Under the pieces are notes generated by a model. It was not told the origin of the DNA and searched no databases. It worked only from the letters and a program-made list of their open reading frames with translations. The translations under genes and the position numbers were made by a program. DNA of 64,000 nucleotides from a virus, in IMG/VR virus record IMGVR_UViG_3300042468_000945, positions 54,099-118,098 of that record; one strand, 5' to 3'. Shown one piece after another: positions 26,501 to 61,342 of this stretch (position 1 is its first letter; every line of letters starts with the position of its first letter).

Positions 26501-29500
26501 GTTATCTGCTTCAGTCCAGTGAGATTTCCATCTTCGATAAGCATTTGGTCTTGCAGATTCAACAGCACCACCGTATAATGGGTTTCTGTTACCAACACTA
26601 AATAACCTACCTGTTCTTACAAACTCGTTACCATAAAGAATATCTTCTCTTGTCTCTTCTTCAGATAATGGATTTAGATAATTATCTAATCCAGGAACAC
26701 CATATACTAAATTTTTAAGTGGATCTGTTAGACCAAAATTATCTCTAAGTCTTGCACTATTTATTCTTGTATTCGCATATATGTTTGCACTGTAATCATC
26801 AATACCTTCAAGATCTTTTTCGTGCATATCTGCATTAAAGTTTCTATAAAGCTCACCTGCAACTATAACAGGTAAAATCCTTTTTGCGTATAAAGCAGCG
26901 TGTGTTTTTGCAAAGGTAGTCGTGTCTCTTGAGGCAAGTCCTAAACCAGCATCTTCTAAAACCTTAACCGCACCATGAGATAAAGCAGTAAAAGCTGTAC
27001 CAAAATAGCCCTGAGCTTCACTATTATATACCAAGCCTTTTCCAGCACTCAACATACCAAAACCTCTTTTAGCTTGTTCTGCCATCATCTGAAGCATGCT
27101 TTCTTTACTTCCAGTTAACATGGAACCAAGAGAAGGAAAATTAGATGGTAATACAGTATACCTGGAGAATACCTCTTCAGGGACTGTTGGTGGTTCTACT
27201 CCACGTTGAAAAATATTTTTATCGTAATAATCAAAAACCCCTAGGTTATTTGCTAGTTGTTGAGTTGCATTAACAGCCCTATCCTCAGTTTGGGTATAAG
27301 CTGAGAGTAGTAGTGAATCACTCCTATGTTTTTCTAAGCTAATTAACCTAGCTATGGGGTCTTCAATTAAACTATCTATACCTTGTTTTGATGCTAAACC
27401 ACTTGCAATTGACCTTCCAACAGATGGAATATATTCCTCTGCCGCAGTATTAGAAAAAGCTGTGTCAGCAAGATTAGCAAGATTTTGTACTCCAGCACCC
27501 AAATAACTTTCAAAAAACTTAACAGACTCTGGATTTGCTGAGAGGGGGTCTCTAATGTCTCTTAAAAGTCCTTCTAATGTAGTAAAACCAGTCTTGGAAC
27601 CTGCAAGTGCATCTTCAATTTCTTTTACACCTATGTTAACGCTTGCTTCTTCAACTAGTCCTCTTTGTATGTTCTTTTGTAGATATGATAAACTATTTTC
27701 ACCTAATAAAGTATCCTCAACCTTTTCTTTGAAACCACCTTTTGTGGCTTTTGAAACGTCTCCAAGTCTCTCACTATCAGAAACATAGTCTGCCAGAGCT
27801 TTAGATAGTGTGGCACCATACTGGGAGTTAGTCCTTGATTCTAAATCTGACCCCCTTAAAAAAGCACCAAGCTTATCAGTATCACCTGCAACTTCAGCTA
27901 ATTGAACTAAGAAGTCGTCACCATCAAATACTTTTGCTTTGCTTATTGCAGCAATTGCAGTATTAAGATCATTGTAAGAATCTGGCGTAACAGTAGCACC
28001 TAATCTTCTTTGCAAGTCTTGAGCAATAGCCGTAGGGATTTTACCCTCATTTTCTTTTAAGAAACCTGCAACAAGTTTTGGGTGAAGTTGATCAGAAGTG
28101 ACATTACTAGGATCACCACCAAAAAACCTAGTTATTATGTCTGACCCTACACCACCTAAGTTTCTAGGTTTGGCTTTTAGTTTTCCATCTTCTACAAGTA
28201 AAGTAAAGAGTTCAGGTTGAGCATTATAAGCTGCTCTCTCTACTTTAGTCATATTCTTAGACTCTCTTTGGAAGAAGAAATTAGCTGCACCTTTTATGTT
28301 GCCTTTTTCATCCATGTCTGAAAGAAGGTCTTTAAATAAATTATCATCAACAATGTCTGATCTTGCCCTAGACATGTTTTGCAGAATCTCGCTTCTTTCA
28401 TTGTCTAAGTAAGTGAATCTTCTTGCATCGCCTAGATTAAGTTTTTCTAAAACAAATGAATCAGTTTCTTTTAAGTGGTTAACTTTAATAATATCGCTAC
28501 CAATGCCAATACCAAAATCATTTTCACCAAAAGAACCACCCATTCTTTTTAGTTCACCAAGTTTGTTTAAGAATCCAAGATTCTTAATAGGTGTATTATC
28601 TGGCTCTAAAAACTTACCAATGGTTGTAGGAATATTAAAAGTAAAAGGCAGTAATGGAATTTGTCCACCTTTTCTAACAGAACTTGCAACCTTTCTTCTC
28701 ATATTTCTTGCATGAGATAGTGAGACTACTTGACCATCTCCACTCATTGCAAGACCAGTAAAAGTATTATCTACTAATGTGTTTACATCATTTATAATAT
28801 TAGCTGGGACGTTAGGTATTAACGTATCATCTTTACCTTTAGAGTATAAAAGCTCCTCTAAACCTTTTCTTGCTCTGGCTGATACAATATCAACGGTATC
28901 GTCGCTACCTACATTTTTAAGGTACGTTTCAACTGCTGCTTTGTGAGTACCTTCTACATCTTTTAAGGTTAGAAGTTTGTGTGATTTCGTTAAACCTAAA
29001 AGGTCTAGGGTTTTAGTCTCAACAGATTGAGTTTCGTTTAGGTGTCGTTTAATTGAATCAAATAACACATCAGCATTTTTTGCTCCATTAACTCCCTGAA
29101 ATATTGTACTGGTTCTAATGTCTGGAGTCTCTTTGATAGCCTTCTTCATAGACTCTTGAACCATTTTTCTTTGTTTTTCTAGTATTTCTTCCTGTCCAGT
29201 AACGCCCCTAACTGTCTTAAATTGAATTCCAGGAGTGGCTTCTTGGAATCTTTTCATGTGGGTATCTTGTAAAAGACCGTCAGCAATCTTAGAATAATTA
29301 CCATCCATAAAGGAATCAAAAACTTCAGCTACTGCATGTTTCTGAGTATCAAAAGCTTCACGACTTGAATCCTCTACGTTTTCCCTCATAGCATTAAGGA
29401 AGGTAGTTCTCCTCTCAGCTTTTAAAGCACTACTTAAAAAAGACCTTCTAATTCTTGGTACACTATCAGCCATGAAGTTAAAAGAGTCTGAGAAGAGTAT

Positions 29501-29698
29501 TTTACTGTCTTGAACACCAGCTATTGCCCCAATATATTTTCTTAGAGTGGTTCCTTGACCAGCTAATTGAGACGCAACACTTTTACTAATATAAGGAACA
29601 GAACCAAGAGCGACAGCAGCCACACCTGCAAACTTTGCAAATGCTGAAACTTTATCAATAAAAGTTTCTTTCTCTTTGTGAAAATCTGATCCTATCAT
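23510..29698 (-). CDS. Giant virion protein (tape-measure position) with PD-(D/E)XK nuclease-like domain
   Basis: 2062-aa ORF immediately downstream of chaperone-like genes; Gly-rich linker at about 26120-26190; GSAAH..E..EIKT..YEDQLMYY motif set. Confidence 0.6.
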   Translation of the reverse strand: MIGSDFHKEKETFIDKVSAFAKFAGVAAVALGSVPYISKSVASQLAGQGTTLRKYIGAIAGVQDSKILFSDSFNFMADSVPRIRRSFLSSALKAERRTTFLNAMRENVEDSSREAFDTQKHAVAEVFDSFMDGNYSKIADGLLQDTHMKRFQEATPGIQFKTVRGVTGQEEILEKQRKMVQESMKKAIKETPDIRTSTIFQGVNGAKNADVLFDSIKRHLNETQSVETKTLDLLGLTKSHKLLTLKDVEGTHKAAVETYLKNVGSDDTVDIVSARARKGLEELLYSKGKDDTLIPNVPANIINDVNTLVDNTFTGLAMSGDGQVVSLSHARNMRRKVASSVRKGGQIPLLPFTFNIPTTIGKFLEPDNTPIKNLGFLNKLGELKRMGGSFGENDFGIGIGSDIIKVNHLKETDSFVLEKLNLGDARRFTYLDNERSEILQNMSRARSDIVDDNLFKDLLSDMDEKGNIKGAANFFFQRESKNMTKVERAAYNAQPELFTLLVEDGKLKAKPRNLGGVGSDIITRFFGGDPSNVTSDQLHPKLVAGFLKENEGKIPTAIAQDLQRRLGATVTPDSYNDLNTAIAAISKAKVFDGDDFLVQLAEVAGDTDKLGAFLRGSDLESRTNSQYGATLSKALADYVSDSERLGDVSKATKGGFKEKVEDTLLGENSLSYLQKNIQRGLVEEASVNIGVKEIEDALAGSKTGFTTLEGLLRDIRDPLSANPESVKFFESYLGAGVQNLANLADTAFSNTAAEEYIPSVGRSIASGLASKQGIDSLIEDPIARLISLEKHRSDSLLLSAYTQTEDRAVNATQQLANNLGVFDYYDKNIFQRGVEPPTVPEEVFSRYTVLPSNFPSLGSMLTGSKESMLQMMAEQAKRGFGMLSAGKGLVYNSEAQGYFGTAFTALSHGAVKVLEDAGLGLASRDTTTFAKTHAALYAKRILPVIVAGELYRNFNADMHEKDLEGIDDYSANIYANTRINSARLRDNFGLTDPLKNLVYGVPGLDNYLNPLSEEETREDILYGNEFVRTGRLFSVGNRNPLYGGAVESARPNAYRRWKSHWTEADNVQLSNPNYSYLPTLTNPFAPLFRLFNRDWQQDLTAKDRPYASKEEMFDYLEKSQEGYASKNSGNYLQAVLSSYKGQEPVEDFLDNAGVGGSTDEGGIFRGFGIGKGSGGGGSGGGHGSGGGGGGEGGSYGDNRVYKYGYNKHYEEENYHHNALSEVYEKMVHHTITPMGIYSGVARQLPFYPEEHAFQIQDPDKAFSTNRLLYSAKFGEKGTGMFGEFFRRFIDEPRQDPDAFNPLPNSMPGWMPSKFRTGDPYARVSDGELVMPGDAYERANPFVRPLKIRGSSIGLSEDEMVKSFLDPVGVEQAEQLQNIMEFGSAAHKIIMQQMNQQGILVGAEIAAYDESVNGSATIETLVRGKSGLEVVEIKTRGTENINEDVSKYEDQLMYYMYLTKTKVGHIAHVNRDNPSEVRIKSYEYDPHRMQEIFEKVERARNRVKNLIEEGVVSPYETYGLLERIEVLAKVAPESSEYRRYLQRAEDSGAFGGMEARRFEIAKEIARRKSEMYNLYPKRNVRLETQAVTIEGFTDTGNIITDRGIVKLAGVDFDPQAFTYQNPEDVYKKYGLSVGKKANLTLIQGQFNPELMKHTVLDAIIEDVNRELIKSDYADSDYKSRNPLANRVIGRTGFMSSITEYITHSDNMVSNKYLRVRTGLEQFKRGEVYGTDDYSLRDIKDNYVTPTINSIISKDPITAGIQSALAASIFARTRQSRLKVAKVAAVVGASLSIIRNIGEAVSGDTWTPKRYKDRAEFDEYYDTLTFIKEASISNAARKKEGVDELSATMQESQFNSLATDAEFKARRTMYGFDVVSGTLQEALDAIPKRQRQIAESIVTTGTDREKEEFYRLLPRAQKRVLGKFLGKDVDDVPDKPTLKEYFRDHALPGADWQGWKRDVDLEDIKTRASELEGIKIARPSRKKLEKAKAYTRDIEVPRMNRRSRNNIEREIGKLASSGEFGKIIVNYSQFPTEKNVININLNVFSDISSEIEAEKERTRSRLQQ

Positions 29699-49781: not shown

Positions 49782-50304
49782 TTAATGCCTCTTCTAATTT
49801 ACTAACTACACTTGCTTTATTTACTGGGTCATCCCAATTAAAAATAACTAGTTTAGGTTTTGTTGCAATGCCAAGTGTTCCACAAAGGGGCAGGCATTTC
49901 TTAATTGTTTCTATATCCAAACTTGCCCTTTCCCAGTGTTCATTACTAATACCCAGATTCAAAGCAGTTTGTTTAGAAGCTGTTTCTGGGCCACCTACTA
50001 CCACATAGAGTGGAATTTCGGGGCAAACAAAGTCAAATTTAGGTATATTATTATTACTTATCTCAAAATAATTAAATTTTCCACCCTCAATTACATTTAA
50101 ATTCTCAACAGTGTTTTCAATTTGATTGAATACTGCAACCTTATTTTGTTTAGTATTTAAAACAAGTAATGGTAAGTCATTGTAAATACAATCACCTACA
50201 ACATCTATTCTTCTTTGTTTTTCTGTGAGGACATTTTTACTTTCACAGAAATAAACTAACTTTATTAAAAATTGTTTTAATTTAATTACAAGACTACTTA
50301 TCAT
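49771..50304 (-). CDS. Hypothetical protein
   Basis: 177-aa ORF overlapping both neighbours. Confidence 0.55.
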   Translation of the reverse strand: MISSLVIKLKQFLIKLVYFCESKNVLTEKQRRIDVVGDCIYNDLPLLVLNTKQNKVAVFNQIENTVENLNVIEGGKFNYFEISNNNIPKFDFVCPEIPLYVVVGGPETASKQTALNLGISNEHWERASLDIETIKKCLPLCGTLGIATKPKLVIFNWDDPVNKASVVSKLEEALNEA

Positions 50305-51542
50305 ACTTTACCTTTTAGCCATTTTTTCATAATACTAGCTGCTTGTTGTGCTTTACCAGTAGCATTAATGGGTGGAGTTTGTGGGTAATTTTTAGCTTTG
50401 GTTGTTTCCTCTAAAAATTCTTTAGCAGATATACCCTCTTTTTTAATTTGTTTTTCGTAGTTTTTTATTGATTTGTTTAGTCCAAGGAATATTTTATTTA
50501 GTGTTGAATCAACTAAATTTCCGTATAGCTTTTGTCTTACCTCATAAGCTTGGAAAAATTGTTGGTCTTGAACTAGAAATTCACTTTCAACATTCTTTAA
50601 AGCATCAAACAAAGATTTTTCTATTGTTTGTCTGTACTTTAAAAGTATAGGGTCTGCTGTAAACGTAGAATTATCTCTCTCCACATCCTCAGTCAAGTTT
50701 AATAGAATATCTTTAGTTCTGTATAGGTAATCAAACCCCCAACTACGAGATAACTTACCATAATTATTACCTGAAACTGTCCCTAGAGAGGTGTCTAAAG
50801 CAGTATCTAGCATTTTAAATTCATCATACAATCTGTCAACTTCTGTAACAAAAGAGAAGTTAGAGAACGATAAATACTTATTAATCTCGTTAGGGTATGT
50901 ACTTGCTAGGTTAAGAATTCCTTTAACAGCATCTTCACTAATAATATCTTCAACTAAACCTTTAATTTTAGATATGTTTTCTCTTATGTTATTAGCTAGT
51001 TGTTGATCCTTTAAGATTACACCAATTAACAATCTTTTTACTGTATCAGAGTTTAAATTATCTCTTTCTAAAAGGGGCATATAAACATTTTCGTAAGCAT
51101 TTTGAATTACAGCTAACTGTCCCCTGCTTCTATAATAGTCTTTAACTAATATAATTTCTGGGTTAGTTTGTCTTCTATAAATGTCCCTTTCAATTATTGT
51201 TTGAATGTTTTCTGGGGGAACTTGTGTTGTTTTATAGTTAGAATCATAAGGGGTGGCAAATTGTACTTTTGCAGCAGCAAAAAATGCGCTAAATACTTCG
51301 TCGTCAGAGTATTTAGCTTCTATTCTATTAATTTCTTCCTGTACTAGACTTGTAGTTGTCTTTACAATATCATATGTATCTTTAAGATAAGAATATGGAG
51401 AAGTTAACTCTACTTTAGTCTGGTTATTGTTCTCAGAGTTGGTTATTTTAATGGAAGTGGTGTCTTCTAGGGTTGTTAAAAGTTGGTCAACCTTCTTTTC
51501 TATTTCTCTTTTATCAATAAAACCAGAAAAACTATTGTTCAT
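50301..51542 (-). CDS. Hypothetical protein
   Basis: 413-aa helical-looking ORF coupled to the terminase stop (TAATG). Confidence 0.6.
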   Translation of the reverse strand: MNNSFSGFIDKREIEKKVDQLLTTLEDTTSIKITNSENNNQTKVELTSPYSYLKDTYDIVKTTTSLVQEEINRIEAKYSDDEVFSAFFAAAKVQFATPYDSNYKTTQVPPENIQTIIERDIYRRQTNPEIILVKDYYRSRGQLAVIQNAYENVYMPLLERDNLNSDTVKRLLIGVILKDQQLANNIRENISKIKGLVEDIISEDAVKGILNLASTYPNEINKYLSFSNFSFVTEVDRLYDEFKMLDTALDTSLGTVSGNNYGKLSRSWGFDYLYRTKDILLNLTEDVERDNSTFTADPILLKYRQTIEKSLFDALKNVESEFLVQDQQFFQAYEVRQKLYGNLVDSTLNKIFLGLNKSIKNYEKQIKKEGISAKEFLEETTKAKNYPQTPPINATGKAQQAASIMKKWLKGKV

Positions 51543-54500
51543 TAAAAATTATCCCTCTCATAACCATAAATTGAATCATCCAAAGATGATCTACTATAGA
51601 GAAAATCTACTGCTTCAAACTCATCTAAATCCATATTTAACATATTATTTTTAATTTGTCTTACAGCATCTTCTTCTGATGGTACAGCTATAACCCCAAA
51701 ATTATCTAAACTTTCGTTAGTCATAGTGTAAGGGTTCTCAAATAATGTAAATATCCCAAACATAGCAAACAAGAAACAGTCAATAATGTGCTCGTTCTTG
51801 CTTGTAAACTTAACAGTATTAGCTGTGGTTTTAATTACTTTATAATCTAAGAATTGTTTTTGAATGTCTTCTCTATTCTTGGGAATCATAAGAAGACTTT
51901 GTTGTGTTTTAGCTCGGAGGAGTTCTACAAGATATGGTTTTACTTTTATCTTCCTATCTTCTCCAGTAAGTTGATCAGGAACTACGACATTGGATTGGAA
52001 AGCTAACCTTGTAAGTTTTTGAGCTAAACCAAGCTCTGGTCGCAGTAAAGCAATACTATTTAAGTCTTCCCATTGCTTCTCAGAGGCCCCTTGGTCAATA
52101 ATCACAAGTGTAGGATTGAACACCTCAAAAAGTTCAACTATTCTGTTAACTGCTAAGGTATAAGTCCACTCACCCTTTGATATCTCTTCGTGCCATATAA
52201 ATTTAAGATTTTTTAGGTAGGGATCATATTGAGAAATAAGGATATTGGTTCCGCACTGTACTTTATCCCAGTCAACCGTTAAGAATATTGGATTATGTGG
52301 GTGAACCTGTTCCATTGACGGTTCCCAATCATATTTGAAAACATTATCAATATCTTCTTTTTTAAAGACTGCACTATCTTCTTCTGCAACTTCTAATAGG
52401 TACTCAGTTGTCCAGGTTGCTTCGCTATTGACAGCAATCCTTTCTTCTTCAATCATATCAAAATCCCATTCTTCATTTTCAGTAATGGGAATTTTAATTA
52501 TTGTTTCATTTTTTGATTTTTTTAAGTTCTTTTCAATTTTCTCGTAGTATTCACCTTCTGCTTTATTAAGAGTACCAGCAACATACGTCCTAATAGATTT
52601 ACGTCTTGTTAAGTCACCACGCATGATTGGCTTAATAACCCTCCAGTCTTCATCGGAGAGTCCTTGACCTTCATCAACAAACACCACGTCAGCAGTAATA
52701 CCACGAAGTTTGTCAGGAGCAGTACCGTTTACACCAAGAATATGTCCATGAATAGTAGAACCAGTAATAAATGTTCTCTTCATTGGGGCACTTGAGTTAC
52801 CTACTGGGTGTACAAACTCTTTTAGTAATGGATTAGCACCAATCCAATCATCAATTGCTTTAAAGAATTCAAGAATTTGAGTGCTTGATGGTGCAAACAC
52901 ATGAATAGCTTTACCCTCTCTTGTTACAGCATGCCATAAAGCAAGTACTGAAAAACAGAAACTATTATGAACAACTACATTGTTTGCTGAGAAGGAGAAG
53001 TTACAATTATCTTTGAGAATGATGTCATATACTTCCCGAATCCCTGCATTTGTTATATTAACAACAAGTTCCCACCTTCTAGGATTTTTAGCTTCGTGTA
53101 TAGCAACGTCTAGGTCTAAAATATCTCTTAAAAACAGATCAGCATCTAAACTATCATCTATTCTTATAAGACCATCCTTTGTCACCCTACAGAAAATATT
53201 AAATCTAAGTAATAGGTGTTGTAAATCAAAAGCAAATGGCTTATTAAATATGGATAAGGTAATATTTTTTTGTTTGTGGTCTAAACGACCATAATTAACA
53301 AATAAAATTTTAAAATAATTCTTTAATGTTAGATAATCAAAATTAAATACAACATCAGGAATGTGGTTCTTGGATATTGTAAAGTTAGCAATATCTTCAA
53401 GTTCTTCGTCAGTTACAGTATTAACTCCATGTTCATATGAACTAAAAGCAAGTATTTGATCACCTATTTTAATTTCACTTGCAGGAATCCAACCACTTTT
53501 CTTTTCATAAACAAGGTGGTCTAAAGAGGGGGTAAGTGACACGCCTGACTCTAATCTAAATTTTACGCAATTTTTATAAATGGGTATTGATAAACTTGCA
53601 CCTGAGTTTTCTGGTTTATTTGAATTTAAGTTGTAGGTAACAGTATTAAAATTATCTTTTACATCTTTAAGTCTTATTGGTCTTAATGTATCTGCATCAA
53701 CAATGAATGAATTCTTATCTAGGCAATTGTGCGTAGGAGTATAGTTATCAGTTATGTATAAATGATCTTCGTCACCAACTGTTATACATTGCATCTCCAC
53801 TCTGGAATCTAATTTTTCAACCTTAACTATAGTTCGTCTTAGATACCTTTCAGGAAGCCCAACACAATTTTTTCTTTCTAAATTGAAGATATTTAGTTCT
53901 GCTGGTACTGTAATGTGTGCTCTGTATCTAGTACCTGTAACCTTTCTTACACCATCCAAAGTGTAACACGCATCAGACTCCTTCACAGACACCTTACAAC
54001 CCAAAGATCGTGCAAGATCAGCAACATCATGGGTGAGTTGTTTAGATACAGTACAAAACTCTGCTGAACCATTCTTATTTCTTTCAGCATGACCATCTGT
54101 GTCCATTAAACCACGTAACAACCAAAGACGTTGTTCAACACTACTATACTTGTAAATATCAGGTATAAACTTAGTATGAGATTTTTTATTTGTCAGCCCT
54201 AAAGATTCTAGGTCTGGGAGGTATTCTTTTCCAAAATCTAAGAAATATCTTTTTGCCTTACTCTTAGTCTCAGAGACTCTTTTTAATTCAAAGCCAGTTC
54301 TTTTTTGAATGGTAGTAATGATTTCTTCATCAGCACTTGTAATCTCACCTGTTGATAGTGAACCATCACCCAATAATACACCCATTAAGTATGGGTCAAT
54401 AGGAAGTGTATTGGCACTATGCTCAACAGGTTTAACAGGGTTTAATTTATATCTGAACTCAGCTTTGTCACTGTACTTATAAATGTATGTGTTGAGAATC

Positions 54501-54988
54501 TCTTCTGTAGTTTTAACTACATTGCCACGTTGAAGTTTTCTTGTTAATCTAGATCCTTTACTTCCAAGTGCAGTATAAATCTCCCATTCGTGGTCTTTAC
54601 CCGAATCCACATAAGTACCATCTGATAAGTGGATTCTGTAAACATCTTGTATTCCATGAGGTATAATATTAGTTACAGGTGCTGTTTTACCATTCGGGGT
54701 AGACACTGTTGTACCTATTTTGACATCCCCCATTCTTATAGGACCTTTTGGAGTATACACTAAGGAGTCCAAAGGTTGCATTTTCCCGGCACGTCGATGG
54801 ACACATACCCAAGTATCTCGGGCAGTAGAGCTCATTATGATTCTTTGGGGGTACTGAGCCTTGAATGGCTTGTATGGGGGTCCTGGGTTTGGACTGAATA
54901 GAAACGTCTCAGCAAACGTTAAAGGACTGCTTTTTGCTTTCTGAAAAGCCTCCACCATTTCTGGTGTTAATTCATTCTGATCGAACAT
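51542..54988 (-). CDS. terL: Terminase large subunit with two tandem inteins
   Basis: AQYPQ adenine-binding Q, Walker A HRRAGK|S split by inteins, Walker B VVFVDEGQ, nuclease FLTVDWD and HIIDC; 542 aa after removing both inteins. Confidence 0.93.
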   Translation of the reverse strand: MFDQNELTPEMVEAFQKAKSSPLTFAETFLFSPNPGPPYKPFKAQYPQRIIMSSTARDTWVCVHRRAGKMQPLDSLVYTPKGPIRMGDVKIGTTVSTPNGKTAPVTNIIPHGIQDVYRIHLSDGTYVDSGKDHEWEIYTALGSKGSRLTRKLQRGNVVKTTEEILNTYIYKYSDKAEFRYKLNPVKPVEHSANTLPIDPYLMGVLLGDGSLSTGEITSADEEIITTIQKRTGFELKRVSETKSKAKRYFLDFGKEYLPDLESLGLTNKKSHTKFIPDIYKYSSVEQRLWLLRGLMDTDGHAERNKNGSAEFCTVSKQLTHDVADLARSLGCKVSVKESDACYTLDGVRKVTGTRYRAHITVPAELNIFNLERKNCVGLPERYLRRTIVKVEKLDSRVEMQCITVGDEDHLYITDNYTPTHNCLDKNSFIVDADTLRPIRLKDVKDNFNTVTYNLNSNKPENSGASLSIPIYKNCVKFRLESGVSLTPSLDHLVYEKKSGWIPASEIKIGDQILAFSSYEHGVNTVTDEELEDIANFTISKNHIPDVVFNFDYLTLKNYFKILFVNYGRLDHKQKNITLSIFNKPFAFDLQHLLLRFNIFCRVTKDGLIRIDDSLDADLFLRDILDLDVAIHEAKNPRRWELVVNITNAGIREVYDIILKDNCNFSFSANNVVVHNSFCFSVLALWHAVTREGKAIHVFAPSSTQILEFFKAIDDWIGANPLLKEFVHPVGNSSAPMKRTFITGSTIHGHILGVNGTAPDKLRGITADVVFVDEGQGLSDEDWRVIKPIMRGDLTRRKSIRTYVAGTLNKAEGEYYEKIEKNLKKSKNETIIKIPITENEEWDFDMIEEERIAVNSEATWTTEYLLEVAEEDSAVFKKEDIDNVFKYDWEPSMEQVHPHNPIFLTVDWDKVQCGTNILISQYDPYLKNLKFIWHEEISKGEWTYTLAVNRIVELFEVFNPTLVIIDQGASEKQWEDLNSIALLRPELGLAQKLTRLAFQSNVVVPDQLTGEDRKIKVKPYLVELLRAKTQQSLLMIPKNREDIQKQFLDYKVIKTTANTVKFTSKNEHIIDCFLFAMFGIFTLFENPYTMTNESLDNFGVIAVPSEEDAVRQIKNNMLNMDLDEFEAVDFLYSRSSLDDSIYGYERDNF
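52964..53725 (-). mobile_element. Class-1 intein with degenerate endonuclease remnant (residues 422-675)
   Basis: Starts CLDKNS; block B PSLDHL, block F VYDII, ends VVHN followed by Ser; remnant IPDVVF...DLQHLLLRFNI lacks acidic LAGLIDADG motifs. Confidence 0.9.
53726..54781 (-). mobile_element. Class-3 intein with LAGLIDADG homing endonuclease (residues 70-421)
   Basis: Starts MQPLDS; block B DHEW (Trp), block F MQCITV (Cys), block G PTHN (Thr); endonuclease motifs LMGVLLGDGS and LRGLMDTDG. Confidence 0.9.
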
Positions 54989-55472: not shown

Positions 55473-56152
55473 TATAACCTACTATTCCTCCCCATTATCG
55501 CTCGTCCGTAAGACGCATTGGCACCCATGTCGTTAATATTTCTAATATTTGTACCATCATAGTACACGGTAGGGTCGGGTGTTTGATAAGGTAAACCTTG
55601 AATTAAACCAACAGCTGCGGAACCAACACCAAGAGCAGCAACACCCTTTTTAACCATGCTTTTATTAGGTGAAAATCTTCTTTCATCTGCTACTGTTCTT
55701 GTAAATGCGTGGCTACCACCTTGTACTTGTTGAACTTTAATACCTTTAAGACTTGCAGCAGCTTTAGCATCAACAGCATTGTCTATCAGATCTTGTTGTG
55801 TTATTGCTGTATCAGTATAGTCCACAGTCTGCCCAAACAATTTACCAACTTTACCACCTCTAGGGTTATGAGATTTCATACCCATTTTTTTGTAAAAATC
55901 AGGTGTAACTAGTTTTTCAATCTCACCCCCACTTACAAGCCTATCAGCGGTGTCGTTTGCGTAGGGGAATAGTTTTTTAACTGCTTGAGAAGCATTCTTT
56001 GCTTTAGCTCGAAAAATTCCAAAAAAGTTTGTATCTAAGGCATTTGTAGCACCTACAAATGCACCTTCTGCACCTTTAATAATATTAGATACTATTCTAG
56101 GGGCTTTTGCAAGGTTTCCAGCTAATGCACTAAATAAACTCATTATTATCAC
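55472..56152 (-). CDS. Hypothetical protein with C-terminal hydrophobic helix
   Basis: 226 aa; KGVAALGVGSAAVGLI. Confidence 0.55.
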   Translation of the reverse strand: MIIMSLFSALAGNLAKAPRIVSNIIKGAEGAFVGATNALDTNFFGIFRAKAKNASQAVKKLFPYANDTADRLVSGGEIEKLVTPDFYKKMGMKSHNPRGGKVGKLFGQTVDYTDTAITQQDLIDNAVDAKAAASLKGIKVQQVQGGSHAFTRTVADERRFSPNKSMVKKGVAALGVGSAAVGLIQGLPYQTPDPTVYYDGTNIRNINDMGANASYGRAIMGRNSRL

Positions 56153-56888
56153 CTTCTTTTGGTGGTTCTAGGGATTGTGGTTCTTCTCCAAACAACTGTG
56201 AAGTAAATAGTTTTTTGAGTTGTTCTTTATCCCCACCAAACTGTGCCGCCATAGTTAACCTATCCTTTCTAGAAGCAATTAAACTTTTCTTAGTAGAATC
56301 AATCTGCTTATCAATAGCATTAGCTACTTTTAATAGGGGGTGCTCTTTCATTTCACCAAAAGCTTTTTTAGTTTTATGGTCAATAGCGTTAACAGCTTCA
56401 ATAGTCATACCCTCTACAGCAATGTCCCAATCAATCCTTCTCCTATATATATAGAGTCTGACAAGGTTAGCAACGTCTAGAATATCAACAGCTTGACCAG
56501 GTTCAATATTAAGGTCTTTAACTAATGTTGTAAAGTGTTGGATTCCAAGATACTTTTCTTCTCTGCATCTTGTCCCTTCTAAGATATGGTAATTTGAAGG
56601 GTCCATTGCTTTTAAGGTAGGACACACAGAAGCATAGTGACACTTCTTTGTATTACAAATCATAGGCATGTCACTAATAACAGGAAGTTTTTTAGGGATT
56701 TTTACCTTATTTGATGGGTCCCATTTAGTATTGAACAACATAAAAGTTGCAAGATTCCACAAAGAATCATCAAATTCATCTTCAGTTATTGGAGCTACAA
56801 TACTAAACTTAGTAGCCTCACTCTTTATGCTGTCTTTTGAAGGTAAGTGAAACTCGCCTTCATGTTGTACTATATTATTATCTTCCAT
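56130..56888 (-). CDS. Hypothetical Cys-cluster protein (possible small terminase)
   Basis: ICNTKKCHYASVCP...TRC cluster then helical region; the ATG at 56888 (MEDNN) reduces the overlap with the upstream gene. Function inferred from position. Confidence 0.4.
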   Translation of the reverse strand: MEDNNIVQHEGEFHLPSKDSIKSEATKFSIVAPITEDEFDDSLWNLATFMLFNTKWDPSNKVKIPKKLPVISDMPMICNTKKCHYASVCPTLKAMDPSNYHILEGTRCREEKYLGIQHFTTLVKDLNIEPGQAVDILDVANLVRLYIYRRRIDWDIAVEGMTIEAVNAIDHKTKKAFGEMKEHPLLKVANAIDKQIDSTKKSLIASRKDRLTMAAQFGGDKEQLKKLFTSQLFGEEPQSLEPPKEGDNNEFI

Positions 56889-57312
56889 ATTTTTTAGGAT
56901 TTTTATACCCATGATTTAAATCGTTTAAATCATAGCTAATCTTTTTTAGACAAATTACTTTAACAATTTCATCATCCAAAATTCTTTTCTTATTTTTTAA
57001 GTGGTGTAAGTTCTTATATTGACTTACATTCTTGGCACCATAATTAGTATCCCACTCTTTTTTAGTAATATTTCTTAATCTTGTATCTCTTAAATATATT
57101 ACATCATAATACTCAGACGTTAATATATTCTTTTCCTCAGTACAATCATTAAGGAAATCATCATCACTAAAAACATTAAGTTTAAAGCTAGATGTTAGAT
57201 TTGTTGATTTAGCAAATCCTGCTTCTGGGTTAAGTACCAAGCAAAAGACAGGTAAAACATCAATATAATCATACTCGGTTTTTGGTACTGTAAAATCTGT
57301 GTGCATTTTCAT
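56878..57312 (-). CDS. Hypothetical protein
   Basis: 144 aa; GAGG RBS. Confidence 0.6.
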   Translation of the reverse strand: MKMHTDFTVPKTEYDYIDVLPVFCLVLNPEAGFAKSTNLTSSFKLNVFSDDDFLNDCTEEKNILTSEYYDVIYLRDTRLRNITKKEWDTNYGAKNVSQYKNLHHLKNKKRILDDEIVKVICLKKISYDLNDLNHGYKNPKKYGR

Positions 57313-57412: not shown

Positions 57413-60400
57413 ATGAGTATATTTGACGAAGGTTTAAAGAATAAACAGGAAGATAATGGTTATGAGTTAGGTGATTATAACTATAACAAAGGTGGGTTAC
57501 GATCTCTTGAACTGCCAGCAATGGGTGGTCTAACTCAACCAACTACTATTATTTTCAGAAACGGAAATGACGGCAAACCTCCAGAAGCTATAGCTGAACT
57601 TAAAAGATTACTTGACCTTCAAAATTCAAGGAAAAGTGCAAGTGATGAGGAAAGAAAGTTTTTAGCTAAACAAATAGCAAACCACTTAACCTCTCCTAGA
57701 ACACAGAGTTACTTTGAAAAGACTGCTTTCTTAAACATGGAAGCAGCCGCAAATATTGATATTGGAAGAGGTTTATCTTCCTTTGTTGAAAAAACGTATG
57801 CAAAACAAGGGTATGAAATAGAGATTATTAAAGCAAAACTTGTTGGAAGCACTACTGGTATTCCCCTACACGAATCAACCCTTGAAGCACATAAAAAGTA
57901 TCTTGCTGGACAAGGTAAAAACCCATTTGGAAAGTTTGGAGAGTATAATGTTGATACTAGCCAAACAGCGTATTACCACCTAGAAACAACAAAATCTGGA
58001 CATAACTTACTGCATATGAATGATATTCTTGCAGGATCAATGGTTATGGACTTTGACGGAGACATGGTTACATCTATGGTAGCCAGAAAACGAGACCCTG
58101 TAACTGGTAAAATAACTTCGGAATTTATGATTCCGTATAAAGAACCTCTTACCCAAAAAACCCCCAGATTTAGAAATATTGATTATGAAAGTGATATAAA
58201 GTTTAATAAAGGCAAACCTTTTGGAACGTTTGCTGGATTAAACTACTCTGATTTAGGTGTTCAAACAAACAAAGGAGAAATAAAAGCAGCGTTTTCTGGA
58301 GAAATGAGAAACAGAAAATATTCTGTTTTAGGTGATTTTTTACGTGCCTATGAAAAACCAGAAGCTAGAGAAGGGTTTTCACGAATCAGAGACATTGATT
58401 CTCTACGAGAAACATTAGCAGAAAAATCCTTTAAAGCCAATACTGTTGGGCTTGATACAAACCTGTACCAGGCACAAGCAAATATTGAAAACATTAGGGC
58501 TTTACATTACGTAAGAAGAGCAAATCCAAGTTTATACAAGCAAATGCTTCTTGAACAACAAGAACAGATTGCTGAATATCTTAGAACTTCAAGAACAGGA
58601 GATCAAACTATTCTAGGAACAAAAATAATTGGTAAAAAACAAAAATCAGAATTATATGGAGATAATTTTGAAGGTTTCCTAAACCGCTTAACAACTATTA
58701 ACTTAGATGACGCTGATAATTTAACCCCAGAAACAAACCAATTACTGCATGATCAATTAGTTAGTAGTACTCTTACTAGAGGTGTTTCAGATAGGTTCTT
58801 GGGTGAGTACCACCAAACACTAAGAACTAATGATCCAGCAAATCCTTTTATGAGTAATGGTCAACTAGATAATATTGACTGGATAGGTAAAGGACCATTA
58901 GCTAATCCTAACTATATATTTGAGATTGAAGGTGGTATGAAGACTACCAGAACTACAAATAAAGTTCAAGAAGTACAGGATGGAGTTAAGGATACTTATA
59001 GAAGATATGTAGATGGTAATCCATTTATCAATAAACTAAAAAACCTCCATAAATTAAAACCACAAGAACATGATGATCTCATATCCGAATTACTTGGACA
59101 AGAAGATGGTGAGTTTGTTGATAAATTTGTAGACGCTATGTTTTTAAATGATGTCCCTTATTCTGAAAGGGAGAAAACTATTGCCCAACTCATGGCAAAT
59201 AAGAAGGCAAAACCAGTTGGTGCGTTCTTTAAATATGAAGACGGACAGTATAAAAAAACTACATTAGCTAGATTACAAAAGGAGCATATTGTTGAAACTC
59301 AGGAGCTTTTTGGGTTTGCTGGTATTAGAAAAAACAGGGGTGTTGACTATACAGCTTCACCGCTTGCAATTCTAATCAGGGATATTAATGGTAACTTAGT
59401 AGGACCTTCAAAGGATGATATTATTGGTGTATCAGTTATGGGCAATGTTGCAGCTATGCAAGGCAGCAAAATGACAATGCTTAACAGAGAACAATACCTT
59501 GCATTAGAACTAGAAAGAAGGCTTCAAGATAGTAGATTTGCTGGTTCTAGAGGGTTTCTAGAAGCTCCAGAGCAAGGTAGTTTTAGTGCTAGTGATATAA
59601 AAAACAAATTAATGTATGATAATGATGGCTTCAGAAAAAAGATTTTTGAAGCGTATCAGGGAGTTCATCAAGCACCAACTCAAGATGATACACCAATTAT
59701 CCAAGACCTTATTAATAGATTAAGTAGCACTAATAAGGAAGAAGTATCAAGAACCCATAAAGAAATTATTAGAAGATATGACCTTACACATAGAAGAGAC
59801 CTAATGACGGCAGTACAAGGACACCTAAGAGACATTGTTGCTGCTGTTGGTGGTCGTAATAATATTGATGCTAGGATTGAAAACTATGGGTGGGGTGAGA
59901 ATGGGATTCAATTAAAAGGTGTAGCAGATGATGGTATTGATTCTCTTACAATAAGTGCTATGTCAAGTACGTTGGGTATTGATACTGAACATCTTGGCAT
60001 GAAATCCGAGCATAAGGCAAACATAATGATGGAAGCCTTTAAAAAGTTTGGTGGTTTTAATAGAAAAAATACTGGTTCAGAAAGCGATAGGTATTTATTA
60101 ATGACTATGGGGGAGAGGGCAGGTGAAATTACCCCAGTAGGTACAAATAAGAACTACTTTATGCCAAGAGACTTAGCTAAAAGAATGTCTGATATTCAAA
60201 GACAAACAATTGGTGGAACCGCATTAGGTAAGGTCAGGGTTGCATTAGCTGAAACTGAAATATCAGAAGAATATTTTAATATGATTAATCCTAGTGCGTC
60301 TTTAGGTCTAAAAAGGGCAGATGAAGGTTTAATCTTAATTTCAAAACAATTTAGTAATAGGGCGGCGGCAAAGATTAAGGCTCAGTTACGAGTTGGTCCA

Positions 60401-61342
60401 ACTATTGGTGCAGATGATTTTGAATCGGCATTAGCTTCATTTGTAGAGTTTGGAGTTGGAGAAGCTAGAGTAAATAGTACGGATAGACGACTAACACCAA
60501 CAGAGCTTAAGGAAATGAGGAGAAAGCTCACAGAAGAATTTAAAAATCTTTATAGATACGATGATAGCAACGGTAAAAGACAGTATGTTACTACTGATGA
60601 AGGTCTTGACAGGGTAATCTCTAAAAACTTTAAACTAGTTTCACTATTGGGTGATAAGGGAGTTGTGAGTGTTGTTGATAGTATTCAAGATGAAGATGGA
60701 AAAGAGATTGACATCTTAATGCACATAAACCAAGCAAGATCAAGGTCAAATGAAATTGCAAGATACCAAGAAGTTATTCAAACTGCTGTTAATGAGGGTA
60801 GGTTATCTGTGGAAGACCTTGGACCAGAATTCCAAGCATCAGCTAAAAATGGATTTATTAATTTTGATGAGATATACGCAAAACATGGTGGTAACCAAGA
60901 AGAATTCCTGGCAAAAATTAAAACAGGTTTTATAGATCCGTTAGAGAGAGCACAACAAGCAGTTGCTTTTAGACATGAGGGTGTAAGCCAACATTTTAAA
61001 ACTAGCATATTTGAAACTGATAACTTTGTTGCTGCTGGTAACTGGGGAGACATATATAGAGACCAGAAAGCGGCAGAACTTATCATTGAATCACAAAGCA
61101 AGAACAAACTTATTGGTAGGATAGCTAATGCCCTTGATAATGAGACAGGTTCAGGGCTTGTAGGATTGGGTGTTCAGCTTGGTATGCATATGGCAGTTTC
61201 GTATGCAAGCCAGAAAATAGCTGTTAATGCCCTAGAAACAGGGGTTGTACAACATATGACAGCAGAAGAGTTACTTATCAATTCAAAGAAGATGCTTGGT
61301 ATAGGAAAAGCTTTACAAGATTCACTGGAAGATTATTTATAA
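57413..61342 (+). CDS. Single-chain two-barrel (DPBB) RNA polymerase candidate, beta'-barrel then beta-barrel
   Basis: LLHMNDILAGSMVMDFDGD (D213/D215/D217); DEGLILISKQF; FKLVSLLGDKGVVS (K1074/K1082, same 8-residue spacing as E. coli beta K1065/K1073); DGKEIDILMH...SRSN. Confidence 0.8.
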   Translation: MSIFDEGLKNKQEDNGYELGDYNYNKGGLRSLELPAMGGLTQPTTIIFRNGNDGKPPEAIAELKRLLDLQNSRKSASDEERKFLAKQIANHLTSPRTQSYFEKTAFLNMEAAANIDIGRGLSSFVEKTYAKQGYEIEIIKAKLVGSTTGIPLHESTLEAHKKYLAGQGKNPFGKFGEYNVDTSQTAYYHLETTKSGHNLLHMNDILAGSMVMDFDGDMVTSMVARKRDPVTGKITSEFMIPYKEPLTQKTPRFRNIDYESDIKFNKGKPFGTFAGLNYSDLGVQTNKGEIKAAFSGEMRNRKYSVLGDFLRAYEKPEAREGFSRIRDIDSLRETLAEKSFKANTVGLDTNLYQAQANIENIRALHYVRRANPSLYKQMLLEQQEQIAEYLRTSRTGDQTILGTKIIGKKQKSELYGDNFEGFLNRLTTINLDDADNLTPETNQLLHDQLVSSTLTRGVSDRFLGEYHQTLRTNDPANPFMSNGQLDNIDWIGKGPLANPNYIFEIEGGMKTTRTTNKVQEVQDGVKDTYRRYVDGNPFINKLKNLHKLKPQEHDDLISELLGQEDGEFVDKFVDAMFLNDVPYSEREKTIAQLMANKKAKPVGAFFKYEDGQYKKTTLARLQKEHIVETQELFGFAGIRKNRGVDYTASPLAILIRDINGNLVGPSKDDIIGVSVMGNVAAMQGSKMTMLNREQYLALELERRLQDSRFAGSRGFLEAPEQGSFSASDIKNKLMYDNDGFRKKIFEAYQGVHQAPTQDDTPIIQDLINRLSSTNKEEVSRTHKEIIRRYDLTHRRDLMTAVQGHLRDIVAAVGGRNNIDARIENYGWGENGIQLKGVADDGIDSLTISAMSSTLGIDTEHLGMKSEHKANIMMEAFKKFGGFNRKNTGSESDRYLLMTMGERAGEITPVGTNKNYFMPRDLAKRMSDIQRQTIGGTALGKVRVALAETEISEEYFNMINPSASLGLKRADEGLILISKQFSNRAAAKIKAQLRVGPTIGADDFESALASFVEFGVGEARVNSTDRRLTPTELKEMRRKLTEEFKNLYRYDDSNGKRQYVTTDEGLDRVISKNFKLVSLLGDKGVVSVVDSIQDEDGKEIDILMHINQARSRSNEIARYQEVIQTAVNEGRLSVEDLGPEFQASAKNGFINFDEIYAKHGGNQEEFLAKIKTGFIDPLERAQQAVAFRHEGVSQHFKTSIFETDNFVAAGNWGDIYRDQKAAELIIESQSKNKLIGRIANALDNETGSGLVGLGVQLGMHMAVSYASQKIAVNALETGVVQHMTAEELLINSKKMLGIGKALQDSLEDYL

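Follow-up and report, generated by a model that had tools for sequence, protein, structure and literature searches.

The Walker A motif of the terminase gene terL in the window, that is, the whole 64,000-nucleotide stretch of viral DNA analyzed here, is split RRAGK/S at one codon boundary by two inteins lying end to end, without any spacer. This zero-spacer layout is not unique to the window phage, an uncultured virus from lake water, because 20 TerL clusters, the window and 19 diverged others, carry the tandem pair. Taken jointly, we consider it likely that the downstream intein (Intein 2) is the resident of the site, that the upstream one (Intein 1) invaded it at the Lys/Cys boundary and that both must be excised, the splicing itself being inferred. 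In a search confined to open-access PMC papers and bioRxiv, no description of a natural zero-spacer intein pair was found, and the pair is of high interest to intein biology.

The terL precursor (P0001) is a frame open for 1148 aa plus a stop codon and is the single terL on the window contig. Annotated TerL proteins of Bacillus and Moorella jumbo phages shared 25-27% identity with the window protein in tblastn, and the cultured phage records contained only such distant TerL matches and no DNA match. The residues bordering the inteins were read from the DNA as Lys69 (AAA, 54784-54782) and Met70 (ATG, 54781-54779), Asn421 (AAT, 53728-53726) and Cys422 (TGC, 53725-53723), and Asn675 (AAT, 52966-52964) and Ser676 (AGT, 52963-52961), so that both inserts together span 1818 nt. 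Their removal leaves 69 + 473 = 542 aa and rebuilds the Walker A sequence RRAGKS; the spliced protein (VHRRAGKSF) aligns across the P-loop without a gap or an extra residue to 31 intein-free homologs of 540-542 aa, and in intein-free TerL homologs the P-loop Lys lies at about residue 65-75. Once the inserts are removed, the protein has an intact Walker A GK(S/T) motif and ATPase domain, in keeping with a T4-type large terminase (Terminase_6N). The sequence-only reading had proposed insert boundaries at 52964-54781 (352 + 254 aa), the absence of extein residues between the inteins and a 542-aa terminase with a restored P-loop; the boundaries are supported by the codons, the motifs and AlphaFold/PDB matches, and the other two claims by the gap-free alignment.

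Table 1. Features of the terL locus, in positions of the window
Feature	Position	Strand	Remark
terL precursor	51542..54988	(-)	PF03237 Terminase_6N on aa 676-880, E = 1e-8
N-extein, aa 1-69, ending in Walker A HRRAGK	54782..54988	(-)	aligns with intein-free TerL N-termini
Intein 1, aa 70-421, 352 aa	53726..54781	(-)	putative class 3 intein with LAGLIDADG homing endonuclease
Intein 1 block B His133-Glu134-Trp135 (W of WCT)	54584..54592	(-)	aligned to HqW, Msm DnaBi1
Intein 1 LAGLIDADG motif 1, LMGVLLGDG, aa 201-209, Asp208	54362..54388	(-)	
Intein 1 LAGLIDADG motif 2, LLRGLMDTDG, aa 290-299, Asp298	54092..54121	(-)	
Intein 1 block F Cys401 (in MQCITV), putative class 3 initiating nucleophile	53786..53788	(-)	
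Intein 1 block G Thr419-His420-Asn421	53726..53734	(-)	invariant in tandem alleles
Cys422, putative +1 nucleophile of Intein 1 and at the same time first residue of Intein 2	53723..53725	(-)	
Intein 2, aa 422-675, 254 aa	52964..53725	(-)	class 1 intein, degenerate endonuclease remnant
Intein 2 block B His491 (in SLDH)	53516..53518	(-)	invariant in tandem alleles
Intein 2 insert, aa about 537-601, single LAGLIDADG-like module	53186..53380	(-)	
Intein 2 block G His674-Asn675	52964..52969	(-)	invariant in tandem alleles
C-extein, aa 676-1148, beginning with Walker A Ser676	51545..52963	(-)	

Judging from its motifs and its modeled structure, Intein 1 is a class 3 intein, for which a branched thioester intermediate at block F is inferred. 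Its first residue is Met70 and not Cys, Ser or Thr; in the family this position is Ala, Met or Glu, with Ala as the consensus. The WCT residues, numbered W67, C118 and T137 in Msm DnaBi1 (PMC6195587), are W135, C401 and T419 in Intein 1. Neither these three nor H133 vary among the nine aligned tandem alleles. In the alignment with the Msm DnaBi1 chain (139 residues), W135 falls on HqW, Cys401 on the block F Cys and T419 within PTHN. Sequence matches in the PDB included gp41-1 and the class 3 Msm DnaBi1, whereas structural comparison of AlphaFold residues 31-382 (aa 70-421) matched the HINT fold of the class 3 inteins 6bs8 and 6rix (Z 17.7-17.9) and the whole of PI-SceI (Z 27, 330 residues aligned), the latter match being in accord with the double alpha-beta-beta-alpha-beta-beta-alpha fold of LAGLIDADG endonucleases. 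Pfam matches to Hom_end (E = 1.7e-9) and LAGLIDADG_3 (E = 7.6e-8) were obtained, and both LAGLIDADG motifs retain the catalytic acidic residue (D208 in LLGDG, D298 in MDTDG), with G207, D208 and G209 of the first and G293-G299 of the second invariant in the nine tandem alleles. The endonuclease looks intact and, in appearance, active; DNA cleavage and its target are inferred. Base composition gives no sign that Intein 1 is foreign, its GC content (0.365) being close to that of the window (0.360).

Intein 2 displays the motifs of a class 1 intein (C422, block B S-L-D-H491, H674-N675 and Ser676 at +1) and matched PF14890 Intein_splicing with 35.5 bits alone and 39.4 bits within the whole protein (cutoff 35.8). 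AlphaFold residues 383-636 (aa 422-675) match the mini-inteins Ssp DnaB, Mtu RecA and Npu DnaB, and comparison with 1mi8, 3ifj and 4o1r indicated a HINT fold (Z 18.8-19.3, rmsd 1.9-2.0 A, 134-136 residues aligned). The suggestion that the pair combines two mechanistic classes is therefore borne out by motifs and structure matches, class 3 preceding class 1, and the TGC codon of Cys422 confirms that residue 1 of Intein 2 is also the +1 residue of Intein 1. In the model, the insert of Intein 2 follows an alpha-beta-beta-alpha-beta-alpha pattern, and its motifs (IPDVVF, FKILFVNYG and DLQHLLLRF) lack the acidic residue before Gly. LAGLIDADG_3 matched below the cutoff (E = 0.0015), as it did, likewise sub-threshold, in 6 of 10 intein-2-only relatives. 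From these sequence and model features, the endonuclease of Intein 2 is interpreted as having decayed to a degenerate half-LAGLIDADG module. Thus, the earlier claim that only the upstream intein keeps endonuclease motifs stands for intact motifs, but has to be qualified for Intein 2, which retains this LAGLIDADG-like remnant. The block F Asp (Asp655) is kept, whereas a MAFFT alignment showed that both histidines of the family consensus DHPDHNF, kept by about 80% of the family, are missing from the window copy; P0023 and P0122, its sister alleles, still have the first histidine but not the second. The C-terminal step of the window's Intein 2 may accordingly be slow or impaired. Intein 2 is AT-richer than the window (GC 0.301).

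The tandem clusters share 28-47% identity. In the 19 others, the Intein 1 profile stops exactly one residue ahead of the Intein 2 profile. All 20 have the THN/C junction, with Cys at the position of Cys422, and the junction persists in clusters whose Intein 1 is reduced to 143-308 aa; across nine aligned alleles, H420, N421, C422, H674, N675 and S676 are invariant. Intein-1-only, intein-2-only and empty TerL alleles coexist with the tandem ones, each intein being found singly at the same site in alleles that look functional. Intein 2 stands alone in 18 clusters that are interleaved with tandem ones on the tree, and its family occupies at least three insertion sites within TerL, whereas the TerL clade holding the intein-1-only alleles includes no tandem alleles. 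The Intein 1 family sits after GK in many unrelated P-loop proteins, and in the about 75 members from other contexts in which the +1 residue could be read, it was always Ser or Thr. A scan of IMG/VR with a single-protein query for DNA of the relatives gave no match, and a scan with a tighter alignment recovered 80 loci of the Intein 1 family, which lie in other P-loop proteins and include no tandem pair. Searches with the degenerate junction pattern DNYTPTHNC produced no match and those with YTPTHNC chance matches only. The metagenome scan yielded one intein-2-only allele (L087), which is uninformative on the homing site because it is too diverged (25/45 identical bases on each flank). P0012 and P0135 had been considered as independent acquisitions of Intein 1 and were dropped, as in pairwise alignment they differ only in the endonuclease module.

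The two inteins have different histories with respect to the terminase. The window's Intein 2 is nearest to the copies of its extein sisters P0023 (45%) and P0122 (43%), to which the extein is 61% and 59% identical, respectively. Pairwise identities of Intein 2 and extein are correlated (r = 0.70), and the Intein 2 tree recovers the extein clades. By contrast, Intein 1 presence varies within five strongly supported sister groups of the extein tree (window/P0023, P0133/P0136, P0144/P0143, P0134/P0129 and P0007+P0013/P0132). The window's Intein 1 is 49-58% identical to every full-length copy, at extein identities of 31-45% and without correlation, and the correlation between Intein 1 and Intein 2 identities is poor (r = 0.25). 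P0004 and P0005 are sisters by extein (100*) and by Intein 2 (93), but their pairing was rejected by the Intein 1 data (AU p = 5e-5), with the caveat that this pair was picked after the tree had been seen; Intein 1 of P0004 is 64-69% identical to those of P0008 and P0003 versus 53% to that of P0005. The extein-like grouping was not rejected on the Intein 1 alignment for P0007+P0013 (AU p = 0.32) or for the four intein-1-only rows (p = 0.27). The Intein 1 tree is nearly a star, with the 7 copies followed by an extein Ser/Thr and the 11 followed by Intein 2 on opposite sides, a split that is weakly supported (59/0 with all seven rows, 87/84 with six). These comparisons of sequences support the inference that Intein 2 is an old resident inherited with the terminase and that Intein 1 is a mobile element moving horizontally among alleles already holding Intein 2. 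The earlier proposal that a mobile intein invaded a resident one at its boundary with the N-extein is thus supported, since Intein 2 tracks the extein and Intein 1 conflicts with it. In some sister pairs, however, precise loss of Intein 1 from tandem alleles could have occurred instead of repeated gain, and strong constraint may in part account for the flat 50-60% identity of Intein 1.

An assembly chimera, or a dead gene yielding no terminase, could be suspected for a metagenome-derived contig with only one terL and an Intein 2 devoid of block F histidines. Yet other lake-water samples have Logan contigs that cross each of the three junctions with 100% identity (53725/53726 in X6 record 3 and X7 record 7, 54781/54782 in X8 record 15 and 52963/52964 in X6 record 2), which also settles the concern raised earlier about the assembly between the inteins, and the same sequence recurs in runs dated 2016-2025. 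Furthermore, the 3.4-kb frame is open, the catalytic residues of both inteins are all kept and nineteen diverged relatives have the same layout. This explanation is largely refuted, and we give it almost no credence. It is also very improbable that the two inteins work as one hybrid unit, in which Intein 1 supplies the N-terminal and Intein 2 the C-terminal chemistry and a single 606-aa piece is removed with its inner junction unprocessed. The three scissile bonds must be close, N421-C422 is common to both active sites, and block F of the window's Intein 2 is atypical, all of which would suit such a hybrid. However, His420, Asn421 and Cys422 do not vary across the nine aligned alleles, and THN/C persists in every tandem cluster, even where Intein 1 has become a 143-aa mini-intein; the block B His of Intein 2 is kept as well, and each intein occurs alone in functional-looking alleles. 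The AlphaFold model of the precursor lends the hybrid no support either, as no fixed inter-domain geometry can be derived from a pTM of 0.56 and low-confidence junction residues.

The pair might alternatively have arisen once and spread as a composite, the Intein 1 endonuclease cutting the empty Lys/Ser site and both inteins being copied. Such co-homing has been discussed for mini-inteins beside endonuclease-bearing inteins (PMC10643990); it would account for the persistence of an Intein 2 without a working endonuclease through hitch-hiking, and on the Intein 1 tree a single context change suffices for the tandem-type copies. We nevertheless regard it as unlikely: Intein 2 co-diverges with the extein and stands alone among tandem clusters, the extein and Intein 2 trees are congruent, the Intein 1 tree conflicts with both, and the identities of the two inteins correlate poorly. 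Moreover, homing of the Haloferax double intein into empty alleles is very inefficient (PMC10643990). Still harder to accept is the reverse order of arrival, with Intein 1 resident and Intein 2 inserted behind it at Asn/Ser, although an incoming Intein 2 would find the same 3' flank (Ser-Tyr/Phe-Ser...), and the presence of its family at several TerL sites implies that it was once mobile. None of the Intein 2 members seen still has its endonuclease, and Intein 2 follows the extein, whereas in Intein 1 the endonuclease is intact and it is Intein 1 whose presence differs between sister alleles; the intein-1-only clade, lacking tandem alleles, also speaks against this order.

If Intein 2 is the resident and Intein 1 the invader, Intein 1 would land exactly at the Lys/Cys boundary of Intein-2-occupied alleles, from which we infer that its endonuclease target comprises the P-loop coding DNA and the 5' end of Intein 2. 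The splicing steps are an inference, without measured activity, from the known reaction schemes of class 1 and class 3 inteins. Excision of both inteins would be required for RRAGKS and an active 542-aa TerL. Most likely, Intein 1 splices first, although the order of excision is pure inference. Cys401 would take the N-extein from Lys69 and hand it to the thiol of Cys422, after which Asn421 would cyclize. The resulting N-extein thioester on Cys422, with a free amine, would be the first intermediate of Intein 2, which would transfer the N-extein to Ser676 and exit by cyclization of Asn675. The reverse order would give an identical final product. The earlier ideas about an order of splicing and a gating of packaging are plausible chemically, but purely inferential.

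In the standard view of the homing cycle, insertion of an intein abolishes the endonuclease target and thereby shields the site. A second intein in an already filled site, in many phage lineages, runs against this picture, and its invasion implies that the endonuclease target includes the 5' end of Intein 2 or that homing relies almost entirely on the P-loop half-site. In line with the P-loop being the flank that stays constant, a class 3 P-loop intein is reported to have switched exteins with 10 identical bases on the 5' side and only 2 bases on the 3' side (Gosselin et al. 2025). A more far-reaching reading, which we put forward only tentatively and hold to be possible rather than probable, is that the filled site is open to invasion, that a class 3 sub-lineage homes on the P-loop/intein edge and that relay splicing gates packaging, with the N-extein thioester on the Cys common to both inteins being the last covalent intermediate of Intein 1 and the first of Intein 2. 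If so, one intein parasitizes the edge of another, and terminase activation and DNA packaging hinge on two consecutive cysteine-thiol steps. As terL is essential for packaging, the pair could tie the production of virions to two splicing events. With the Asn421-Cys422 bond and one thiol common to two active sites of different mechanistic classes, the pair offers a natural system for studying how intein steps are coordinated, intermediates handed over and premature Asn cyclization avoided, and might find use in protein engineering for orthogonal two-step or traceless tandem splicing.

Class 3 P-loop inteins have been characterized in mycobacteriophage TerL (TerL1-a; Kelley et al. 2016, PMC5050341), in MP-Be DnaB (Tori et al. 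2010, PMC2807308) and as Msm DnaBi1 (PDB 6BS8; PMC6195587). Like these, Intein 1 lies between the invariant Lys and Ser/Thr of Walker A, lacks an N-terminal nucleophile, and has the Trp/Cys/Thr triplet, the His-Asn end and the HINT fold; such inteins are frequent in phage terminases and other P-loop ATPases, as here. Unlike in the known examples, the +1 nucleophile of Intein 1 is Cys1 of a second intein and not an extein residue, and its first residue is Met instead of the consensus Ala. Intein 2 resembles LAGLIDADG-bearing class 1 inteins and the mini-inteins derived from them (PI-SceI, Ssp DnaB, Mtu RecA and the P-loop intein of Pho RadA) in its Cys1, block B His, block F Asp, His-Asn and Ser at +1; the rmsd of its HINT core to Ssp DnaB and Mtu RecA is about 2 A, and its endonuclease remnant is located at the canonical insertion point. 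It differs from known class 1 inteins in being preceded, at -1, by the terminal Asn of another intein and, in the window copy, in the loss of both block F histidines. Two inteins in one essential ATPase gene are also present in Haloferax MCM (MCM-a and MCM-d; PMC10643990) and Msm DnaB (i1 and i2). In multi-intein genes, terL of the window included, one partner is often without an endonuclease, and the same questions of interference, co-homing and splicing order arise. However, extein residues separate the inteins in Haloferax MCM and Msm DnaB, and sites a and b of mycobacteriophage TerL1, one residue apart, are filled in different phages, whereas the spacer in the window is zero. In the window pair, unlike in those genes, one peptide bond and one Cys would belong to both active sites, and the second intein appears to have entered a site that was already occupied.

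The terL ORF is interrupted by two contiguous inteins, whose boundary codons are listed in the table together with the other features. Reading these codons from the DNA confirmed that the coordinates (52964-54781) and lengths (352 and 254 aa) proposed by the sequence-only reading are exact. The IMG/VR virus contig holding the window is 118 kb long, with a completeness estimate of 66%, and the C-extein is 25-27% identical to large terminases annotated in Bacillus and Moorella jumbo phages. We built a profile from 28 intein-free homologs and aligned to it the window protein and its relatives with the inserts cut out. The excised products read C-V-H-R-R-A-G-K-S-F/Y, with zero gaps and zero surplus residues, and the spliced product of the window has 542 aa, compared with 540-542 aa in the intein-free relatives P0123, P0124 and P0167. 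Thus, the gap-free alignment bears out the earlier claim that no extein residue lies between the inteins and that their removal restores RRAGKS in a 542-aa terminase.

Features of the terL precursor and of other ORFs in the window
Feature	Position	Strand	Basis or product
terL ORF	51542-54988	-	open over 1148 codons
Lys69 (AAA)	54784-54782	-	read from DNA
Met70 (ATG)	54781-54779	-	read from DNA
Asn421 (AAT)	53728-53726	-	read from DNA
Cys422 (TGC)	53725-53723	-	read from DNA
Asn675 (AAT)	52966-52964	-	read from DNA
Ser676 (AGT)	52963-52961	-	read from DNA
Intein 1 block B	His133-x-Trp135	-	aligned to Msm DnaBi1 chain (PDB search); invariant in nine tandem alleles
Intein 1 block F	Cys401 (MQCITV)	-	aligned to Msm DnaBi1 chain (PDB search); invariant in nine tandem alleles
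Intein 1 block G	Thr419-His420-Asn421	-	aligned to Msm DnaBi1 chain (PDB search); invariant in nine tandem alleles
Hom_end and LAGLIDADG_3	on intein 1	-	Pfam
Intein_splicing	on intein 2	-	Pfam
Terminase_6N	aa 676-880 of terL precursor	-	Pfam
Very long ORF	8674-16578	-	2634 aa
Very long ORF	17315-22033	-	1572 aa
Very long ORF	23510-29698	-	2062 aa
Very long ORF	57413-61342	+	1309 aa

We compared solved structures with an AlphaFold2 model of aa 40-720 (35-sequence alignment, mean pLDDT 83.5). In this model, residues 31-382 (aa 70-421) match the whole of PI-SceI (Z 27, 330 residues) and the full length of the class 3 inteins 6bs8 and 6rix (Z 17.7-17.9), and residues 383-636 (aa 422-675) span the complete mini-inteins of Ssp DnaB, Mtu RecA and Npu DnaB (Z ~19, rmsd ~2 A). 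Because these matches end and start at 421/422, the predicted structure places the intein boundary there independently of the motif reading. The sequence-only reading had called for the assembly to be checked across the junction between the inteins (53700-53750), and Logan contigs bridge all three junctions at 100% identity: N-extein/intein 1 (X8 record 15), intein 1/intein 2 (X6 record 3 and X7 record 7) and intein 2/C-extein (X6 record 2). These contigs come from lake-water metagenomes of samples and years other than the window's; misassembly is thus excluded, every junction being crossed in other samples. The database version of the window protein, P0002 (1079 aa), begins at the Met70 ATG (54779-54781), the first codon of intein 1; therefore, gene callers omitted the 69-aa N-extein. 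Truncated gene calls of this kind would conceal P-loop inteins in surveys.

Elsewhere in the window, a 260-aa ORF upstream of terL (56130-56912, minus strand), with two small ORFs in between, shows a sub-threshold match to the small-subunit family Terminase_4 (E = 6e-4, 20.6 bits vs a cutoff of 24.7). No Pfam match was obtained for the ORF directly downstream of terL (50301-51542), for several large neighbours or, at E <= 0.001, for the 1309-aa ORF.

The pair combines two mechanistic classes, as had been suggested. Intein 1 begins with Met and carries the residues that define class 3 in PMC6195587, and both of its LAGLIDADG motifs, LLGDG (Asp208) and MDTDG (Asp298), keep their acidic residues and are invariant in nine tandem alleles, that is, alleles with both inteins and no spacer. 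Intein 2 has the class 1 residues Cys422, block B S-L-D-His491, block F Asp655 and His674-Asn675, followed by Ser676. In the AlphaFold2 model, its HINT halves are separated by a module of ~100 aa with an alpha-beta-beta-alpha-beta-alpha pattern, whose blocks IPDVVF, FKILFVNYG and DLQHLLLRF resemble the second half of a LAGLIDADG enzyme; Tyr precedes Gly where Asp or Glu would be expected. LAGLIDADG_3 falls below the Pfam cutoff on intein 2 of the window (E = 0.0015), as on 6 of 10 intein-2-only relatives. Thus, the earlier restriction of endonuclease motifs to the upstream intein holds in substance, but intein 2 does retain a remnant, in the form of this sub-threshold match and a module without the acidic residue. 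Block F of the window intein 2 (52994-53026) reads K-D-N-C-N-F-S-F, compared with D-H-P-D-H-N-F in ~80% of the family; both histidines are lost, whereas in its sisters, P0023 and P0122, just the second is missing. The missing histidines may slow Asn675 cyclisation.

To survey the TerL family, we ran aa 1-700 through a word-indexed search and the C-extein through an exhaustive HMMER search, and scanned the resulting panel with one profile per intein. The pair is present in 20 clusters of TerL relatives, window included, and in all 20 the intein-1 match ends on the residue just before the first one of the intein-2 match, at the junction T-H-N↓C (the arrow marks intein boundaries). The tandem alleles from the word-indexed search are 30-47% identical overall to the window over aa 1-700. 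Across tandem alleles, intein 1 ranges from 347-356 aa with an intact endonuclease through 308, 285, 260, 252 and 244 aa down to 143 aa; since intein 1 shortens while the junction persists, the endonuclease decays in place. The family also includes 18 intein-2-only alleles (K↓C...HN↓S), intein-1-only alleles (K↓[A/M]...THN↓S/T), 31 intein-free alleles, and alleles whose intein-2-type element lies 8 residues upstream (x↓C...HN↓C-x-H-R-R-x-G-K), some of which also have intein 1 at K↓S/T.

Several relatives illustrate further arrangements. Intein-2-family elements at the upstream site, before the Cys of C-x-H-R-R-x-G-K, occur in P0014, P0015, P0128, P0130, P0145, P0161 and P0184; P0014 and P0015 carry intein 2 first, followed by 8 extein residues and then intein 1. 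The extein tree (98*) and the intein-2 tree (99*) both pair P0154, with its element at K↓T, and P0161, with its element at the upstream site, as sisters, so one intein lineage seems to have shifted between sites 8 residues apart. In the more distant TerL P0186, only three residues of the P-loop, T-G-K, lie between two inteins (GRR↓C...CHN↓TGK↓C...SHN↓T), another instance of extreme intein crowding in Walker A. The closest extein relative of the window, the intein-2-only P0122, has the Walker A sequence N-R-R-A-G-N↓C, with Asn for the invariant Lys; this might reflect a dead copy, an unusual P-loop or a sequencing variant. P0012 and P0135 are identical over 100% of aligned extein columns, 98.8% identical in intein 2 and essentially identical in the HINT parts of intein 1; however, the endonuclease module is intact in P0012 (347 aa), whereas that of P0135 is 87 aa shorter, diverged and without acidic residues. 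The endonuclease domain seems to have been swapped or replaced as a module, leaving the rest of the intein unchanged.

The sequence-only reading had proposed that a mobile intein invaded the junction of a resident one. On the extein tree (81 rows, 507 columns), the tandem state is scattered, with at least 9 changes forced by the starred branches alone, and five strongly supported sister groups differ solely in the presence of intein 1: the window vs P0023, P0133 vs P0136, P0144 vs P0143, P0134 vs P0129, and P0007 and P0013 vs P0132. Intein 2 follows the extein. The copies nearest to the window intein 2 are those of the extein sisters P0023 (45%; extein 61%) and P0122 (43%; extein 59%), pairwise identities of intein 2 and extein correlate (r = 0.70), and the intein-2 tree recovers the extein clades window + P0023 + P0122 (97*), P0004 + P0005 (93), P0007 + P0013 + P0132 (99*) and P0143 + P0144 (97*). 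Intein 1, judged in the same way, does not. Its full-length copies are 49-58% identical to that of the window whatever the extein identity (31-45%), with r = -0.21 and 0.22 for the HINT and endonuclease parts taken separately, and P0007 and P0013, with 68% identical exteins and 65% identical intein 2, share just 49% in intein 1. Extein and intein 2 both place P0004 and P0005 as sisters, but the P0004 intein 1 is 64-69% identical to the P0008 and P0003 copies vs 53% to that of P0005, and the intein-1 alignment rejects their pairing (AU p = 5e-5). That pair was picked after the tree was seen, two other AU tests on this alignment were not significant, and the intein-1 tree is nearly a star. Subject to these caveats, comparison of the sequences is consistent with intein 2 being the resident and intein 1 moving horizontally, which supports the proposed invasion, and it argues against co-homing of the pair as one unit.

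Where the endonuclease would cut can only be inferred. Inteins of the intein-1 family occupy GK↓ across many P-loop proteins that are unrelated to each other, among them PhoH, SNF2-type, RecD-like and FtsH-like proteins, and the following residue is Ser or Thr at all 70 readable IMG/VR loci (within L002-L081). One of the loci, L028, holds two such inteins in a single ORF. Because GK↓ is common to unrelated proteins, the constant element would be the P-loop coding sequence 5' of the site. Gosselin et al. (2025) report an extein switch by a class 3 P-loop intein whose flanks shared 10 identical bases 5' of the insertion and 2 bases 3' of it. In the intein-1 tree, a branch separates the seven copies followed by extein Ser/Thr from the eleven followed by intein 2, and the split holds even though the exteins of 3 of the seven (P0010, P0014 and P0015) belong to the tandem-rich clade. 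The split is weakly supported (59/0 with all seven rows; 87/84 with six of them), and there are only hints of two intein-1 sub-lineages with different targets, one of which might be the Lys↓Cys junction with intein 2.

Both inteins must excise, we infer, because the phage persists over samples and years and the catalytic residues are all kept in 20 lineages. Our proposal for the order is inferred from what is established about class 1 and class 3 splicing (PMC2807308, PMC6195587). If intein 1 acted first, Cys401 would attack the Lys69-Met70 bond, the N-extein would be handed to the Cys422 thiol, and Asn421 cyclisation would leave the N-extein as a thioester on Cys422 with a free alpha-amine. 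This would be the same linear thioester that a class 1 intein forms in its own first step, so that intein 2 could go on to Ser676; alternatively, the product could relax to the normal Lys-Cys amide, as in the intein-2-only alleles. If intein 2 acted first, it would leave Asn421-Ser676, the context of the intein-1-only alleles, and RRAGKS would again be the end result. However, the second route would pass through an Asn421-Cys422 thioester, at which premature cyclisation of Asn421 could cut the chain without ligation. Because of this risk we lean, by inference and without much confidence, towards excision of intein 1 first. Excision in either order remains possible but is the weaker candidate, an obligate intein-2-first route appears improbable, and hybrid excision of the pair we regard as very improbable. 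The block B His of intein 2 is kept in all tandem alleles, and intein 2 has thus not come to depend on the proposed hand-over from intein 1.

The P-loop position Lys↓Ser/Thr is the classic intein site, and class 3 inteins are known in phage terminases (PMC5050341). In open-access PMC papers and bioRxiv, we found no description of two natural inteins without an intervening extein residue, nor of an intein entering an already occupied site. The pair thus brings together two intein classes that are already known, in a zero-spacer stack that recurs in evolution and had not been described in that literature, with one Cys and one scissile bond common to both inteins. The double inteins of Haloferax MCM, in which homing interference has been studied (PMC10643990), occupy separate sites, whereas in the window pair no extein residue lies between the two.
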